A DNA stretch of 63,694 bases, counting the filler, from Collodictyon triciliatum (lineage: Eukaryota), in the NCBI GenBank assembly GCA_043381765.1. It is 14 parts of 14 records of this genome, joined end to end, with 100 filler letters (N's around TTAATTAATTAA, not from the genome) between each part and the next. Parts side by side here need not be neighbours in the genome. Positions count along the whole stretch, not along the records: positions 21,952 to 30,714 come from JBHJMP010006281.1; 13 more parts are not named here. One strand, 5' to 3'. Positions within the stretch are counted from its first letter, which is position 1, and every line of letters starts with the position of its first letter. A program made the position numbers and the translations under genes. Under the pieces are notes generated by a model that worked only from the letters and a program-made list of their open reading frames with translations, was not told the origin of the DNA and ran no database searches. This document shows, piece by piece, positions 17,785-25,612 of the stretch.

Positions 17785-20700
17785 CCTTCTAAAATAAAGG
17801 CACGAATCTGCATATCCGTGCTCAATTGCGGCGTGTTTGGCATCACGTGATATTCCTTTGGAATAAAAGCATGAATTGCCTCTTACTTTAATTCAGGATA
17901 ACATTACAGAAATTATGTAAATACTGTGTATTTATTGACCAAAAAGAGCGATGGTATGAATTAGAGAAATATAAACAAGCTTACAGAATACTGGGCCATT
18001 AAGGGATCCATCAAAGAGATAATAAAAGCTGTAATCTTGGGATACTGAGTATCATTTTGAGATTAGTGACCCACATCAACATGAAAGATTGGTTCTCGTT
18101 GAGCAAACATATATCAAAATTGTGTGCTAGAATTTGGAAGAGAAATTACAAAGTATACAAGAGGTCCGTTATATATGTTTTGAATATATCTTACCTGACA
18201 ACGACCAAGGCTCGGCAGGGCTTCAAGTTGGTCAGCAAAAGCCTCTTCATCTTCAAAAAGCTCTAAAATAAAATAAATTTTGTAGTAATAATAACACAAT
18301 TGATTAAATCGAAAAAAATGAAAACTATATGATATCGTAGAGAATAAGAATTAATACGAGAATAAATTGTTCTTGAAATAATCCTTACCTTCAGTTTCAC
18401 CAGCGGAAACAGATCGCTCAACCAACTCAAGTCTAGATTGGACATAGGCCTGAACAACCTGATTGAAATTGCGCACAATTTTAGATGTGACGCTGCTTGT
18501 TTGGTGATTCGAATGATATTGATTGTATTGGGTACCAATCAACGCACTACTGTATTCAGGTATACTTTGTTCTTTTTTTTATTATTAATATTAACACCGT
18601 TATTATAGGGTCTTTTTTTTTTTTTTGGCTAAAAACCAAGTAAAAATCTTATAAAAATGAAGCTGAAGGAAAACCTCTGGTGCATATGTGTCTATTCCGC
18701 TAGGGGTTTCTCCACGGAGGTATGGTAGTGATGCAACTAGTTTAGACCAAAGTCCCAAAAGGTAATATTTGCTGTTTGGAGCCCACTACAGAGAGGGAAG
18801 GGGTGGGCGTATTATTTTAGAAAAAAAACCTTTCAAATTTAAACAGGCTGCAAATTGGGGATGAGAGTGTATTTCCAGCCAATATATATATATATATATA
18901 TATAATTTTTAAGACAATTATATTATTCTTCCTTTCAATTTGTATAAGTCGAAATATTATGTATGACAGTTTCCTTTGTAAGAGTGGACGTTACGTGATG
19001 AGTCTTCAAGCTTGTAATTGTAAAATTGTAGACCAAAGTAATCCATTCGCGATAACCCTCTACACCAACGAGTTCAACGAGCTGATAATTTGATTTTATT
19101 CTTGCGAGCAATCGACAGAATTCGTGATAATTTTCGGGGTTGTTTAACCCTATTGCATGAAATTAGCAGCATGCATTGATAGCAGAGAAAAGTACAGGTA
19201 ATTTTATGATATGTTCCTTCGCAATGGTATGTTGGGTAAACTTAAAGAATAAAATGTACCTTTTTGTGTCCGGAGTATATCTGTCATTCCAGATATCATT
19301 TGTTGAAGGAATCGAAGTCTTTCTGTCTCGGACATAAAAAGGGAGCGACGCACGGAGGCGAATTGCACAAGGCATTCAAGGCACTTCACAATTCAGAGAG
19401 GAGGGTGTTAATTATTTTATTTTTATTTCATTTTAGAAAAAAAAACGTTAATATATTTATTGAGCCAAGCCGTGCTTAATTGTATTTTTGTTTCAATTCA
19501 AAACATTCTGGTTCAAGTTAATATGAGTTTTATACAAATGAACTACATAAATCAAATTATTGTTCGAAAAGAATTATTGCCGAATATTTCTCTATTCATT
19601 TTAAATTCGTAAATGGTTTTACCTGAACAGATCGAGGAGGCTGGGTCGAGCTGTAGAGGTCATAAAATAACTGCATATTTGTAGGGTCCTCAAAAATTGT
19701 TCTCCAGCCCGATGGTATTTGTAATGTCCCGGCAAGATCATCACTGGTTTCATCATTTGTAGCTCCGATGAAATCAAACCCGGTGCATTGAACAAAAAGA
19801 GTCATAGCCTGCTCTGCAACCTTGTCAGCGTGCTGAGCTGATTATATGTAAATAATGTACGTGTTAGCCATTTTAGAAAGCGAGAGCCTGTTTTGTTTTG
19901 TTTTTTGTTTTTTGTTTTTTTTTCATATGTAGATTGCTAAGTATAAACAAACGAGATGCCTGGACTACAGCCCCAAGTTGCTTAAGAGAACTCAACGAAA
20001 GTTGAAAAATTTTCAGCAACCCGTTGTCACGGAAAGATATTGCTGTCTTTCGATGTTGGGATATTGTCCTGCTTGGAAGGCTGGAATTGATTTCGTTGAT
20101 GATTTGGCGGTAAAGGTTCAATCCTATTGACAGATGTGCGGGACTCATCTAGGTTTTGGTCATATATTACCGTTTTGTTTTTGTGTTTGTTTTCTTTTTG
20201 TTTGGTTACTTTTTCTTTTTTTTAAAAAAAGGAGAGAAATCTTGATGATTTAAAATAAAATAAAATAAAATAAAATAAAATAAAATAAAATAAAATAAAA
20301 TAAAATAAAATAAAATAAAATAAAATAAAATAGTAGTTGGAATTAGGATCTAATACAACAACAGGGGTCGAATACATTAATAAGTTTAATTTTGGAGTAA
20401 AGATATGACTTCTATTTAACAAATTTGGCTTTGATTCCTTAGTACATGATTCAATCCATTTTTGGTATATTTGATTTGTTACCTGCGCAAAATTGGACGC
20501 TTCTTCAATAACATCCCTGTAAGGACCGTCATCGCACCACCCAAGCTTGGTAATTCTTGCAATCACCTTGATTTTTTTGAAAACAAATATATAAGCACAA
20601 AGATAATATAGCATTTTTACGCCATTTTCATATACTTGAATTCGGTCCAAGGTGACTTCTTAATTATATGCACTTTGTAAAAATAGGGAAAGTAATACAT

Positions 20701-21251
20701 GAGCTACAATTGATTATCAGAAATAATTGATAAAAATGCATCCCGAATTACCTGAACGACAGCGATAAGGCTTACGTGTTCAAACTGAGTACCCCGATTT
20801 GCAAGGATGCGGAGAAGAAGGTTCTCTGATACCAGTATTATTGGTTTAGGTAATTCGGCAGATTTGTCGTGTATAGTGTGTAATAAAAATAAAAGTCTGG
20901 TATATTTAAGAGATTTATTTGAGCATCAAACTCAGCTATCGAATATTCTTGTTTCGTGTTATTCCAGCAAGGCATACTCGTCTCCATTCTCTGGGCCAGT
21001 GTAAGGACATTCCAATTATTCGTATAGAGCTTCAGCAGCGAAGTAGCCCCGTAATGAATGGCGTACGGAGAAGCAGCGCTTTCGATGACATAGTGGCACT
21101 GTGGAATCAGTTCTACCGAAGTCTATGCAGCATCAAAATAAATAACGGGATTCCGCCACATGTTGGATTCTTTGAGATGAAGTGTGCTTCTCGGCAAGGA
21201 TTATAATTAAAGTACTCGAGTTGAGAATTAAATAAATACATAACTACATAA

Positions 21252-21314
<63 letters not shown>

Positions 21315-21432
21315 AGCCTGTGTTGACTTGGAATTGTGCCAGGGTTTGCTCTGCCTGTGTACGAGATGTGTTGTCGCCGGTGTAGATTTGTTGGCAGAGG
21401 TTCTGGAAGGCAGTTAGCTGCGTTGAATCCAT
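17785..21432 (-). CDS. XPO7: Exportin-7 / RanBP16-17 family; spliced, 3'-truncated
   Basis: FQNLCQQIY...[90 protein letters not shown]. Confidence 0.92.
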
Positions 21433-21951
21433 TATGGTGTCCCAAATGTAATTACTGAGATCTGGCCTCAGCTGATTGAGAAAGATCGGTTAGACAGAAC
21501 AAAAAGCACTTTGAGAGCTAGAGATTCGACATAGAAGCAAGGTAAGCTTCAAGACTTCAAAGTTTGTTGCGCCTGTTTGTTTCTAGGCTGCTAAGGAAGA
21601 AGACAAGAGTGGAATAGGTTAAGGCGATGAGAAGGCTTTGCTCTCCCTGGAACACTCGTGCGCTTGCAAACAGGAAGCCTTATGGCGAGTGAAGGGAGAG
21701 AAAAAAACAAAGCGAGCGCGAGATTCAAGGAGGACAAATAAGTCAACAAGAAAAAGAAGAAAAAGAAGAAAAAGAAGAAAAAGAAGAAAAGAAGAAAAGA
21801 AGAAAAGAAGAAAAGAAGAAAAGAAGAAAAGAAGAAAAGAAAAAAAAAAGANNNNNNNNNNNNNNNNNNNNNNNNNNNNNNNNNNNNNNNNNNNNTTAAT
21901 TAATTAANNNNNNNNNNNNNNNNNNNNNNNNNNNNNNNNNNNNNNNNNNNN

Positions 21952-22650
21952 AAAGACGATATAATTGAGCTCTGCAAAACAGAGCGATTTATTAGTCAGC
22001 AAACAAGTGTAAAGAATGCTTTAATTTTTTTAAAAAAGTCAGTTGTGGATGGTGTGGTAAAAGTCGAGTACAGCCAAAAAAACGAGGGGCGATTTTGGGG
22101 CAAGCCAGATATCAATGCGCTACCGAGATGGATTAAGCAGACACTATTACATCAAAAGTATGTAGACGTGGATATATCAAATTGCCATCCCAGCATCCTT
22201 TTAAAGCTGTGTAACAAGCATAACATAAAATGTGAGTCATTAACGCATTACTGTAATAATCGAGACTTATGTTTGTCTGAGATTATGGATATATACAAAT
22301 GCTCAAAACCAGATGCCAAAGACCTATTCAACATTATGAATTTTGGCGGAGGATTCACTACCTGGGTTGAAGACAAAAAAATTGTAGATTCAATTGAATC
22401 TGAATTTATAAAAACTTACTATGAAGAAGCCAAGAGAATCAAAGAACAATTTGCGGGTATCCCTGATTACAAAAAGTTTTTTGATATGGCCAAACAAGAA
22501 AAAGAAAATCCGTATGAAATAGTTAATAGTGGTATGGCATTGATTATGCAACACTACGAGTCTGTTTATCTCGTCAAAGCTGGAGTTTGTAAAAAATACA
22601 AATACCCAGCAATTGTATATCCCAGCTCACGATGGTTTTTATTTACATAA
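21952..22650 (+). CDS. TVpol (transposon-viral, family-A-related) polymerase/primase domain; 5'-truncated, continues by frameshift into the helicase ORF
   Basis: Frame is open from the contig edge. It contains GRFW, YVDVDISNCHPSIL (PolA motif A-like D.D..N.HP), DAKDLFNIMNFGG (motif B-like) and LIMQHYES. The motif C-like PAHDGFYL lies in the next frame. No introns. Confidence 0.8.
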   Translation, partial: KDDIIELCKTERFISQQTSVKNALIFLKKSVVDGVVKVEYSQKNEGRFWGKPDINALPRWIKQTLLHQKYVDVDISNCHPSILLKLCNKHNIKCESLTHYCNNRDLCLSEIMDIYKCSKPDAKDLFNIMNFGGGFTTWVEDKKIVDSIESEFIKTYYEEAKRIKEQFAGIPDYKKFFDMAKQEKENPYEIVNSGMALIMQHYESVYLVKAGVCKKYKYPAIVYPSSRWFLFT

Positions 22651-24403
22651 AGACCGATACAAGGCAATGGGCCTGGAAAAATTCATAAAAATGATAAAGG
22701 AATATGTAGATGAACCGGGCATAACTTTTATTCACAAAGAAATGACCGAGATAATTGACCTCAAGACAGCGGATAAAGTAAACATTAATTTCTGGGACCC
22801 GTTTGATTTGTACAATATCGCCTCTGAGATTGCGAAAAAAAAAGAGTTTACGGCTTGTAACGGAGTCTTGTATGTTTACAATGGCGTTTATTGGGAGGCT
22901 GACACACCGGAAAAAAACTATTACCAATTCGCAAAATATTGGAGCAACAATTATTATTATGTCATTTACGATTTGATGAAGCAAGCATTTGGTCAAAATG
23001 AACAACCAACAAAAAAATCAAACAAAAGAAAAAGAGGTAAACAACCAGAATCTGAAATGGCTGAAGATGCAAATACAAAAGCCATTCAGGCACATCAAAA
23101 ATCGTGGGAGAGAGAATTAATAAAGTCCCGTGTGTTTAATTTCAAGGCGCTCGTGACACTAGTTTTACAAAGACTCGAAAACTCGACACTGAAATTTAAC
23201 GAGAAACCGAATTTATTCGCCTTCAATAACGCAATATTTGATTTACAGCTAAACAAATTTATTGAACCCAAGCCAGAACAGTATATATCAGAGACCTGTG
23301 GATACAATTATGAAGCTGACCCAGAATTAGATGCCAAAAAAATAAAGTTGATGGAAATATTCAAAACAATTCTACCGCTGGAATACGACTTGAAGCTTTT
23401 TTTGAAATACTGCTCGACGGGTCTCACCGGGACACTGATAGAAAAAATTTGTTTGGCACACGGGTCTGGACGAAATGGCAAAGGTTTATTTCAGGAGTTC
23501 AACAAATACGCACTGGGTAACTACTTTTATGCGCTGGCACCAAGTAGTATTCAAACCAAACTTAAAGAAGGAACAAATCAAGCTTTGGCAAATATCGAGG
23601 GCAAGCGACTCATTACAACCTCGGAACCAGACCAAGGTGAATTAATTAATACCAGTACACTGAAATCACTCACAGGCTGCTCGGTCATCAACGCACGAGG
23701 TCTTTATTCAAAAAAGACAGACACCATAAATTGCGGGACTTTTATTTTAGAGTGTAACAGCAAACCAAAACTTGATGTTGTAGAACAGGCAATCACACAG
23801 AGGCTATTTGTAATACATTTTCCTATCAAGTTTATCGAAAAAGAAGTGTATGATGGTCTGGAGGATAAAGATGGGTATGGCATCGTGAATATCAAATACA
23901 AGGACCTTGATTTTTTAAAAACTAATAAAATTGCGTATTTTCATATTTTGGCCGATGAGTATCAGAATTACATTAAAAATCCATCTTTTCTTTTACAAGA
24001 AGGCAGTCGGTCGCATCAAATTACAGAAACTTATTTTCAGGAATCCGATGACTTTACAAGTTGGTTTTACACAAACTATAAAAAAGTTGACTCTGCTTTT
24101 GAAGACATTGTTTATTTAGCTGATATTCGTAAAGACTACATTGAGTTTAAAAAACAATCAGAATATAAGTTTGAAATGAAAATTGGGACATTTTACGAAA
24201 AAATGACAGTGTGTCCTATGCTCAGCAAATACGTCAAACAGCGGGATGTGGTGTATAAAAAAGAAAAATTGAAAAAGCCTATAATAATTGGACACCAAAA
24301 ATTGAGTTTACAGGAAAAAGAAGATGTCGAAGTCGAAATGGTAAATGAAATAGGAAGCGAGCCGCTTAAATCTGAAAACAAACCATCCTTTCTTTTAAAA
24401 TAA
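22580..24403 (+). CDS. TVpol C-terminus plus D5-like superfamily 3 helicase
   Basis: AHDGF, D5_N-type KPNLFAFNNAIFDLQLNKFIEPKPEQYIS, Walker A HGSGRNGKG, Walker B GKRLITTSEP, INARGLY, motif C FILECNSKP, and Arg-finger AITQRLFVIHF. Intronless. Confidence 0.9.
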   Translation: MEFVKNTNTQQLYIPAHDGFYLHKDRYKAMGLEKFIKMIKEYVDEPGITFIHKEMTEIIDLKTADKVNINFWDPFDLYNIASEIAKKKEFTACNGVLYVYNGVYWEADTPEKNYYQFAKYWSNNYYYVIYDLMKQAFGQNEQPTKKSNKRKRGKQPESEMAEDANTKAIQAHQKSWERELIKSRVFNFKALVTLVLQRLENSTLKFNEKPNLFAFNNAIFDLQLNKFIEPKPEQYISETCGYNYEADPELDAKKIKLMEIFKTILPLEYDLKLFLKYCSTGLTGTLIEKICLAHGSGRNGKGLFQEFNKYALGNYFYALAPSSIQTKLKEGTNQALANIEGKRLITTSEPDQGELINTSTLKSLTGCSVINARGLYSKKTDTINCGTFILECNSKPKLDVVEQAITQRLFVIHFPIKFIEKEVYDGLEDKDGYGIVNIKYKDLDFLKTNKIAYFHILADEYQNYIKNPSFLLQEGSRSHQITETYFQESDDFTSWFYTNYKKVDSAFEDIVYLADIRKDYIEFKKQSEYKFEMKIGTFYEKMTVCPMLSKYVKQRDVVYKKEKLKKPIIIGHQKLSLQEKEDVEVEMVNEIGSEPLKSENKPSFLLK

Positions 24404-24437
24404 ATTGAAAAAAATAAATTGCGTCTATAAATACAAT

Positions 24438-24626
24438 TTATTCACTGTTCGATGTGGTTGGACTGTCCAAACTTTTCTCATTAACTTTTCTTCTTTTTAC
24501 TGCGTAAATTGGATTATACTTGTCTGCGTATTGCTTCTTTTTTTTCCATACTGCGATGATGTGCTTGACTTTGTCGGATGTAAATCCAAATTCTTGAAGA
24601 CAGCGGAGCTCGAACTGAGGATCCAT
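24438..24626 (-). CDS. Small basic hypothetical protein (MDPQFELRCLQEFGF..., ~62 aa)
   Basis: Fills the space between the helicase and the next gene, convergent with the helicase. Contains NLS-like WKKKKQ and VKRRK. Confidence 0.5.
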   Translation of the reverse strand: MDPQFELRCLQEFGFTSDKVKHIIAVWKKKKQYADKYNPIYAVKRRKVNEKSLDSPTTSNSE

Positions 24627-24697
24627 TTTGTATAGTCTTACCAATATCTTTTTAAGCCATTTATTAATTTAAAAACAATTATCTAGGCTAATTTAAG

Positions 24698-25180
24698 ATG
24701 GCTCCAAAACTCACGCAAGAAATCAAGGACAAACTCCCCGAGAATTATAGCTCCGATGATTGGGAGCCAATTGCCCCTGAAGATATTCAAGTTGGTGATT
24801 ACATCGCATATTTAGCCAAACCCAGAAAATATATGTCAGGAAAAGAAGATGCGGGTGGATGGAAAAAAGGAGGCTTAATTACTGTGATTCCCAACATGGA
24901 CGAGCAAATGCGACGCAAGGCCAACGATGATAAGGTGTTTTTCTTTAGGGCTTACACTGTCCAATGGTCTGTTAACCAGGACAACGTGGTGATGTTCTTC
25001 AAGTCGAAAAAAAATGTCGACGAAATTCTAGCCAAGGGAAAGAAACGAGCCAGGGAAACCAAAGAACAGACAAGGGTCAACAAGCTCAAATTTGACACTG
25101 AAAAACTGGAGGAGCAACTCGAGGAGGTCAACAAGGAAGAAAAGAAGCCTGCCCGTAGAGGCCGACCACCCAAAAAATAA
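24698..25180 (+). CDS. 160-aa hypothetical protein with C-terminal AT-hook
   Basis: Clean ATG-to-stop intronless ORF with a beta-rich N-domain (IQVGDYIAY...WKKGGLITVI...QWSV...FFK), a charged coil and terminal PARRGRPPKK. Confidence 0.75.
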   Translation: MAPKLTQEIKDKLPENYSSDDWEPIAPEDIQVGDYIAYLAKPRKYMSGKEDAGGWKKGGLITVIPNMDEQMRRKANDDKVFFFRAYTVQWSVNQDNVVMFFKSKKNVDEILAKGKKRARETKEQTRVNKLKFDTEKLEEQLEEVNKEEKKPARRGRPPKK

Positions 25181-25185
25181 ATTTC

Positions 25186-25612
25186 CTACAACTTATTTCT
25201 TGTCGCAGCCCGTTCAGCCCGACTATTTTTTTGAGTTTCTTTTGTTTCTTTGTTGAATCTATATAGATCTGATTCTTTTAGACCACTTGCGCCTTTCATC
25301 TTTCTGCCTTTATTGTTTTTTAAAAATTCGTCCAAGTCATCCTGTTCAGCAAACTCACTTATCAATTGCGATTTTGGTTTAAATTTTTCATCTTTAGTGT
25401 CATCTGAAACAAGCAGCAAGTCAGCGCGATTAAACTTTTTATTTTCCAAGTTATCTGTTGTTTCGAGTGTATAATACGGGAGTTGCCACTGCGAGCTCGG
25501 TGTACTTTTTTTTTTAATTTTATAAACCTCTAAAGACCACTTGGGTAAATATCCCTTCTGTTGTTTAATTTTGTTTTTCATATTTGCCGGAATATCGGTT
25601 TTTTCTAAGAGT
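25186..25612 (-). CDS. C-terminal part of a Polinton/Maverick-type retroviral-like integrase; catalytic core hidden in or beyond the N gap
   Basis: KGYLPKWSLEVYKI...PYYTLET...KKFNRADLLLV matches the KGY.P.WS.E.(F/Y).I...Y.L...F...(E/D)L..V C-terminal region of Polinton-type integrases. The frame stays open upstream into the gap (LLEKTDIPANMKNK). The DDE core is not visible. Confidence 0.65.

Follow-up and report, generated by a model that had tools for sequence, protein, structure and literature searches.

A frameshifted TVpol-helicase gene of a Polinton-like virus in Collodictyon triciliatum and the palindromic ends of its integrated element

Introduction

How does a virus that integrates into its host with a retroviral-type (rve) integrase, and that carries no pPolB, copy the ends of its genome and leave the host again? 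The question is raised by a stretch of DNA from the protist Collodictyon triciliatum, 63,694 nucleotides long and called the window throughout, in which an earlier note had recognized a PolA-related (TVpol) primase-polymerase joined to a D5-like SF3 helicase. The gene by itself is ordinary; the interest lies in the ends of the element to which it belongs. These ends bear on two open questions, namely the end replication of viruses with an rve integrase and no pPolB (10.64898/2026.07.28.741278), and the genome exit of endogenous virophage-like elements: the way in which endogenous copies get lost is left open by Hackl 2021 (PMC8547959), in the accessible text of which the words 'palindrome' and 'hairpin' do not occur.

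Results

The gene and its two reading frames

The window is a string of unrelated contigs of ~4.3 kb with 100-nt spacers between them, taken from a short-read assembly of 75 Mb in 14,576 contigs, and it represents a single scaffold only over positions 21952-30714 (C6281). Neighbours outside this interval, being unrelated contigs joined by spacers, were dropped as genomic context, and the long 'inverted repeats' of the window proved to be only spacers and simple repeats. The assembly contains an 18S gene of 2,153 nt, compared with 1,831 positions in the model, and an EF-1alpha, presumably of the host, without the insertion typical of animals and fungi; both fit a eukaryotic host that is most probably a protist.

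The gene lies on the plus strand. Its TVpol domain (21952..22650, read in frame A, 21955-22650) contains the Arg hairpin, the palm Asp of motif A, a fingers KxxxK and QxxE; it starts at the contig edge, 21952, directly after a 100-nt spacer, so that the 5' end is truncated and ~10 N-terminal codons are missing. Frame B (22544..24403) contains the last palm motif, D5_N, the SF3 helicase and a C-terminal region. The series of motifs given in the earlier note (D.D..N.HP, K.L....NFGG, Q..E and HDG, then D5_N and SF3 Walker A/B/C) is present in full and in that order: DVDISNCHP (22165-22191), KDLFNIMNFGG (22318-22350) and QHYE (22549-22560) in frame A; HDG (22628-22636), Walker A (23462-23485), Walker B (23609-23626) and motif C (23744-23758) in frame B. 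The motifs stand, and the contiguous frame of a single protein does not: the spacing from QHYE to HDG is 79 nt versus 24 codons in all three intact relatives checked, and since 79 is not a multiple of three the two catalytic Asp of the window copy fall in different frames. Comparison with the intact relatives places the change of frame between these motifs, at 22561..22627.

Replicase relatives in the genome amount to five matches among seven candidates, the window copy included; the other four copies comprise three that are whole and unbroken (823, 826 and 830 aa) and one truncated by a contig end. Over 526 codons compared with the intact copy on C786, the window copy shows 48 synonymous and 24 non-synonymous codon differences, which suggests that the frame break is either a recent mutation or else an assembly error. 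A metagenomic protein that is 93-95% identical to both window frames reads unbroken. Among the public sequencing runs listed, part of the stretch was found in 20 of 24 and half of it in 0 of 24; the four runs compared (X1, 54 contigs; X2, 66; RNA run X20, 2; X21, none) hold relatives and not the source DNA. A mimivirus-type early promoter, AAAATTGA, was considered before TVpol and set aside as too weak, being exact in only one of four copies.

The polymerase domain is missed by the Pfam and PHROGs profiles, and a PDB sequence search with frame A gave a best E no lower than 0.16. Its assignment comes from structure prediction on the first 280 aa of the intact C786 protein, to which frame A is 95% identical over 209 aa. 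The top Foldseek matches of this model (pLDDT 97.2) are all DNA polymerase I (E 5.8e-6), and an independent structure search ranks Pol theta (Z 14.8) and Klenow (14.4) above T7 RNA polymerase (10.1) and the best family B match (7.1). The model thus confirms the N-terminal domain as TVpol, a family-A polymerase core, and agrees with the PolA-type fold of the earlier note.

The same 280 residues have 3,085 relatives at E <= 0.001, the best 150 of which were listed, and the TVpol alignment consists of 107 rows including 106 relatives. R57, D84, K133, E213 and D235 are unchanged in 107/107 rows; R57, D84 and D235 are the beta-hairpin Arg and the two palm Asp that, together with RxxxK, define the TV-Pol family in the accessible text of Iyer 2008 (PMC2579912). 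The fingers motif is here KxxxK in place of RxxxK: across the alignment its first position is R in 67 rows and K in 32, while the last K is found in all 107. Profile and structure searches found no nuclease domain with the TVpol-helicase. Primase and polymerase activities are predictions, as they are in that family-defining paper.

The D5-like helicase sits C-terminal to the TVpol domain, where frame B matches D5_N (PF08706, E 5e-9) and DUF5906 (E 3.5e-8) in Pfam. It also matches phage and plasmid P4-type primase-helicase profiles, and not poxviral D5 in particular; matches to phage records involve the helicase part only (22-26% identity). The proposal that the polymerase replaces the AEP primase of poxviral D5 is therefore retained for the AEP, because in sister elements this slot is filled by an AEP-like domain, and not for a specifically poxviral D5. 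The basic stretch KKSNKRKRGK (23012..23041, plus strand), a possible nuclear localisation signal, is present as described. It lies not between the domains but inside the D5_N match, which spans frame-B residues 99-267, the stretch beginning at residue 157. The four closest proteins share it, and a basic cluster occurs in just 6 of 110 long homologues. Replication in the nucleus, as the earlier note would have it, is not borne out: integration is seen, yet the basic cluster is this rare, and the available text on a TVpol-bearing PLV of Phaeocystis describes it as dependent on a giant virus (10.1101/2022.07.28.501842). Overall, the TVpol-D5N-SF3 architecture is of an already known kind, described for Sputnik, OLV, PgVV and cryptophyte PLVs in the parts available of Yutin 2013 (PMC3671162) and Yutin 2015 (PMC4642659).

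The element

Downstream of the gene, the scaffold carries a 160-aa gene (24698..25180, plus strand), found between replicase and integrase in seven of the eight contigs with both, which has no family match over the cut-off in Pfam, PHROGs or NCBIfam (best Atlas score 0.80). The C-terminal part of an rve (DDE) integrase follows on the minus strand (25186..25612) and runs into the scaffold N gap; it is 91% identical in DNA to the integrase of C786, a 401-aa ORF that matches rve PF00665 (E 1.7e-10) and has the D, D and E motifs. Past the gap there is a small-ORF tail (26428..26546, plus strand) that elsewhere lies between the A32 packaging ATPase gene and TVpol. The gap fits the integrase plus a spacing of the C12537 type to ~11 bp, and since the 119 bp past it derive from the A32 side a mis-join through the repeat described below, repeat P, is likely at this point. 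Further along are a 983-aa gene (26755..29706, plus strand), syntenic in C786 and with no family match over the cut-off, and a 286-aa gene (29787..30647, plus strand) of the kind found near the element end in sister copies.

From sister contigs the gene order is fibre-like, putative penton, small gene, major capsid, small gene, A32 and repeat P, followed by TVpol-helicase, the 160-aa gene, rve integrase, the large gene, a 286-481-aa gene, HNH, a small gene and the end. 'Fibre' and 'penton' are provisional labels without a library match; the putative penton is a 291-aa ORF at the expected place, so labelled from a sequence motif, and it has no match in Pfam, PHROGs or NCBIfam. The major capsid protein is a 590-aa ORF of a contig off the window (C4052), without a Pfam match, whose model (pLDDT 75) is a double jelly roll with Z 20.8 to the PBCV-1 capsid chain, above Sputnik (16.5) and mavirus (14.9), the nearest structures being 8-13% identical. 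The capsid search returned 67 matches, among which 22 contigs have at least 57% identity and 33, at 23-29%, represent a second family; capsid relatives at 60-79% identity occur at 11 metagenome loci. A32, which is not on the window contig, is recognized in C786 (PF04665, E 3.8e-14). No complete element exists among the assembled contigs; one of them, C1809, carries capsid, A32, TVpol, integrase and a terminal palindrome followed by unrelated DNA. The fold, together with the capsid, A32 and rve genes alongside, bears out the earlier view that this fusion of TVpol with a D5-like SF3 helicase marks a viral or mobile replicon.

The three matches to pPolB (PF03175) in the genome are all on contigs other than those of the elements, and the replicase slot holds a TVpol or AEP-like helicase fusion, and no pPolB, in 12/12 contigs read. 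Tyrosine recombinase (PF00589) is absent from the genome by a search whose control responded in 14/14 genomes; the maturation protease (PF00770) had no match in the genome in a search where no positive control responded either, and the elements are incomplete. As available to us, Yutin 2015 (PMC4642659) characterizes Polinton-like viruses by a double jelly-roll capsid, an A32-like ATPase, a minor capsid protein and no maturation protease. We file the element as a Polinton-like virus and not a Polinton: it has rve and a 5-bp target duplication, but lacks pPolB. The gene of the window is thus, with high confidence, the frameshifted primase-polymerase-helicase of an endogenous Polinton-like virus in a protist host.

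Replicase exchange and repeat P

The slot next to A32 is occupied by more than one kind of replicase. In the eight contigs with a close A32 (at least 83%), the next gene is visible in seven: TVpol with D5N-SF3 in three, a different TVpol with another type of SF3 in two (C3217, C6940), and an AEP-like domain with that same second SF3 type in two (C962, C6988). The AEP-like domain of the last two has no library match, and we take it to be such from its motifs. Four contigs of the second family with A32 and replicase are split two and two between the second TVpol and the AEP-like type. The A32 tree separates the two families, both clades having 100/100 support, and gives no order for the replicase swaps. 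With three replicases found in a single slot, this virus lineage is a clear example of replicases being exchanged inside one genome.

The integrase position is reached in eight contigs and is rve in all eight, paired with PolA or AEP-like replicases. This is the rarer pairing, because in the available text of Barth et al. (10.64898/2026.10.13.758929) PolA and AEP occur for the most part alongside tyrosine recombinases and pPolB alongside DDE. According to what is accessible of Bulzu 2025 (PMC12220804), TVpol-S3H dominates a cluster in which rve is carried by 2 of 298, and the pairing of a non-pPolB replicase with RVE is described for Halocafeteria (10.64898/2026.07.28.741278).

Repeat P (26548..26720) is an imperfect dyad (z -7.6) that repeats, inside the element, the inner portion of the terminal inverted repeat; it is 91-92% identical to the terminal copies in C10005 and C5852. 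It is found upstream of TVpol in 4/4 copies with that region visible. A second internal position, flanked by the integrase and the large gene, holds P in C1809, C12537 and C14056 and probably also in the window, but not in C786. None of eight intergenic regions beside the other two replicase types contains P, and these regions have no match to their own terminal repeats where the latter are available. P may thus be a cis site, origin or promoter, that travels with the TVpol-D5 replicase.

The internal copies of P in C1809 are 95-97% alike and ~70-75% identical to the P of other copies. One could read in this an autonomous capsid-less transposon, made of TVpol, the 160-aa gene and the integrase between copies of P, that entered the virus: C1809 has P on both sides (97% identical, versus ~70-75% to P elsewhere), replicases do swap in that slot, and mobility of this sort is proposed in the accessible part of Barth et al. 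(10.64898/2026.10.13.758929). We regard this as very improbable, as by eye there is no target duplication beside internal P, the 42-bp integrase end is missing there, the integrase and the 160-aa gene are constant while the replicase alone changes, and no such block was found outside a virus. A site in cis for the replicase remains our reading of P.

Terminal and solo palindromes

At the termini, host DNA is followed by a 42-bp AT-rich palindrome that begins with TG and ends with CA (for example, L081:6212-6253), by ~200 bp of short repeats and then by P; the layout is the same on the HNH side and the fibre side. The window has no 42-bp palindrome: its contig stops short of the element end and is tied to the palindrome by the homology of P and via C1809. 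We examined 40 of 44 candidate contigs plus C5338, a total of 41 loci whose counts are a lower bound. They consist of 19 ends, 20 solo palindromes in host DNA, one further end to which the analysis gave the wrong orientation (C11301) and one shortened end. Solos are flanked by an exact 5-bp target duplication in 18 cases out of 20, and by one with a single mismatch in the remaining two; with wrongly paired flanks a 5-bp match was seen in 0 of 420. Around the 20 solos, in stretches of 0.5-3 kb, there is no inner repeat or element gene. One solo lies inside a host repeat, three empty paralogues of which have the 5-mer once. The element is integrated in host DNA, and its host junctions have 42-bp TG…CA palindromes with 5-bp target duplications, as do the solos.

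Length and symmetry of the palindrome are conserved; its sequence is not. In 350 kb we found 12 TG…CA palindromes of 42-45 bp, 10 of them of exactly 42 bp and including four with other arms, versus 4 hits in 1.05 Mb of shuffled control. Other subfamilies, with differing arms, have lengths of 42, 42, 42, 42, 43 and 45 bp (C1033, C3217, C1334, C846, C2333 and C1644, respectively), and the palindrome of C1809 is still perfect despite ten differences from the reference copy. Taken over all 42-mers, differences from one reference copy comprise 22 paired double changes and 59 single ones, so that simple decay accounts for a large share of the variation. Decay is the same in solos and ends (a median of one unpaired position in each) and consequently gives no order of age between them.

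Could the solos be an artefact? They might be assembly short-cuts across full elements, with the palindromes as by-products of fold-back repair at ordinary terminal repeats that have no role in replication. The assembly is indeed a short-read one in 14,576 contigs, an assembler could join across a direct repeat of 42 bp, and accidental annealing is offered as an alternative in the accessible text of the Halocafeteria preprint (10.64898/2026.07.28.741278). True ends are assembled about as often, correct flanks are paired in 18/20 solos and a length of 42 bp is fixed across unrelated arms, on which account this explanation appears improbable.

A biological alternative is that the solos are direct insertions of the bare 42-bp palindrome, in the form either of a minimal MITE or of a pair of clipped hairpins, at sites where the virus was never present. 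With both TG…CA ends a solo would be a complete substrate for the integrase, and the solos are as young as the ends; the lack of any inner-repeat or element-gene remnant at all 20 would also fit, but is equally expected after clean excision. A duplex of 42 bp is in general short for a two-ended integration complex, and the solo types are the types found at full ends. We consider this origin quite unlikely, and prefer to see in the solos what remains after a provirus is lost.

The ends give further indications. Where the terminal palindrome is imperfect it occurs as two reverse-complement isomers (flip and flop), seen four and three times. Complementary 5-mers identify 4 of 171 possible end pairs, versus 0.16 expected by shuffling; one of these pairs (C3587-C12110) is probably a chance match, both being the same end type, and another interrupts a single microsatellite. 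Among the inferred pairs one has unlike isomers (flip/flop) and another like isomers (flip/flip).

Discussion

These results can be interpreted in terms of a linear virus genome with hairpin ends, which integrates by opening its hairpins and leaves a solo palindrome upon excision. Free virus would be linear DNA ending in 21-bp hairpins, and because the ends are hairpins no protein primer would be needed. TVpol would prime and copy, with the helicase unwinding the DNA, probably starting at the dyad P. Synthesis continuing around a hairpin end would produce the full palindrome, the resolution of which would invert it and generate flip and flop. At the base of each hairpin the integrase would nick past the CA, joining the ends to host DNA at positions staggered by 5 bp, and since repair would unfold the hairpin a whole palindrome would be left at each integrated end. 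Since a palindrome reads the same on both strands, its copies at the two ends are direct repeats as well as inverted ones; if they were cut or recombined with each other, the virus would be removed and one palindrome left between two target copies, in the manner of a solo LTR. No gene for a Rep, a protelomerase or a resolvase was identified in the element.

The same virus might alternatively have as its free form a circle with one junction palindrome, cut by the integrase with a stagger of 42 nt, from which recombination between direct repeats would restore the circle and a solo. This model explains solos and target duplications directly, as well as the hairpin model does; SF3 primase-helicases suit circles, and the pair C387-C10695 is in direct arrangement. 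A circle predicts, however, that the arrangement is always direct, and the pair C3631-C6728, identified by a 5-bp match alone, is inverted; nor does it account for like isomers at both ends. We think it unlikely as a replacement for the hairpin model, while hairpin and circle forms may interconvert.

For the explanation as a whole, a Polinton-like virus replicase with a hairpin-ended life cycle, we estimate a probability of roughly 0.6. Integration by opened hairpins and excision to a solo, taken by themselves, we favour to a similar, limited extent. The full combination, in which 21-bp hairpin telomeres stand in place of a protein primer and act with a retroviral-type integrase and a precise excision that leaves a 42-bp solo, is put forward tentatively, at somewhat less than even odds. 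If it is true, past excisions of the provirus can be counted from the solos, and in the sampled loci they number about two for each element that survives. The 42-bp substrate, the two isomers and the twenty scar sites make both of the questions posed at the outset testable, and the palindrome provides a short marker by which vacated insertion sites could be recognized in the genomes of other protists.

Non-pPolB RVE elements with terminal palindromes next to their target duplications are already reported in the accessible text of the Halocafeteria preprint (10.64898/2026.07.28.741278). In the openly accessible articles and preprint main texts searched we found no report, for such viruses, of flip/flop ends, of excision footprints or of solo palindromes flanked by target duplications; relative to that literature, solo scars, flip/flop isomers and the fixed palindrome length are new.

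Several known systems are comparable in part. By their published descriptions, in the portions available, the TVpol-S3H proteins of Sputnik V13, OLV25 and PgVV-14T have the same minimal family-A core with the hairpin Arg and two palm Asp, without a nuclease and with a C-terminal D5-like helicase; here we find KxxxK instead of RxxxK, a broken copy in the window, and rve rather than a tyrosine recombinase. Polisuvirus, as described in the text available of Barth et al. (10.64898/2026.10.13.758929), likewise swaps PolA/AEP and helicase domains and has repeats flanking its replication modules, but its PolA/AEP are mostly accompanied by tyrosine recombinases, whereas here rve is present in 8/8 contigs. 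Mavirus/EMALEs and Polintons share rve, terminal inverted repeats, short target duplications and many endogenous copies, according to the accessible texts of Hackl 2021 (PMC8547959) and Bellas 2023 (PMC10120064); unlike them, the element studied here is without pPolB. Comparable too are the endogenous virophages and PLV subtype 4 of Halocafeteria seosinensis (10.64898/2026.07.28.741278, available text), with terminal palindromes adjoining target duplications, non-pPolB replicases with RVE, several replicases swapping within one host, and a hairpin model proposed there too. The palindrome is 52 bp there (subtype 5) and 42 bp here; the proposal there concerns priming by the hairpin, whereas the solos, the isomers and the fixed length bear on integration and exit. 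The words 'solo', 'footprint' and 'flip' are absent from the main text of that preprint. The palindromes of Collodictyon also invite comparison, as a mechanistic analogy only, with poxvirus and AAV telomeres and with solo LTRs. Hairpin telomeres of the former kind are AT-rich hairpins in two complementary isomers, flip and flop, and a solo LTR is a single terminal repeat remaining between target copies.

Element ends and broken capsid genes

An integrase fragment (C10005:1221-1874), which matches the integrase of contig C786 at 43%, lies immediately beyond a terminal palindrome, the 42-bp AT-rich sequence found at the junctions of the Polinton-like elements with host DNA; the arrangement points to a tandem or nested insertion. 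Copies of a host repeat contain or adjoin two element ends and one solo palindrome (contigs C5852, C11301 and C1454), sites that suggest a possible insertion preference. At the element end in C5338 (about 2220-2250) the palindrome is shortened to ~22 bp, as expected from the loss of a hairpin tip by deletion. Capsid genes with stops or frame changes were found at C786:10055-11622 and on C7078, C2365 and C10995; in C786 the TVpol and integrase genes are intact, and the capsid block is both broken and truncated.

Host and other genome features

Host gene pieces occupy 3162-4124, 19873-21489 and 31689-33858 of the window, all on the minus strand. They include a match to the TMTC domain DUF1736 (E = 4e-18), and other exons among them resemble, by their motifs, those of an exportin and a P4-type ATPase. 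A degenerate 2.2-kb tandem array, with copies about 72-74% alike, spans 5689-7905. Elsewhere in the genome, a second small-subunit rRNA of 1,440 nt (C834:42374-43813), with a weaker score, probably derives from an organelle, a symbiont or a contaminant.

Second virus family and a pPolB-bearing element type

Contig C6283 carries an intronless coiled-coil ORF of ~1,380 aa (window 35204-39314, minus strand) with 35 matches across the genome. Homologous loci adjoin genes of the second virus family on C3494, C1644 and C2333, which makes C6283 a probable fragment of that family. Also in the second family, a 270-bp inverted repeat (C1334:7707-8244, arms 82% alike) sits between the A32 gene and a replicase that, judging from its motifs, is AEP-like; it is perhaps the counterpart of repeat P, the dyad repeat of the TVpol-D5 elements. 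The three pPolB matches in the genome (C4366, C7968 and C10997), the first accompanied by an A32 match at 40% and a penton-like ORF, represent a third, pPolB-bearing type of element.
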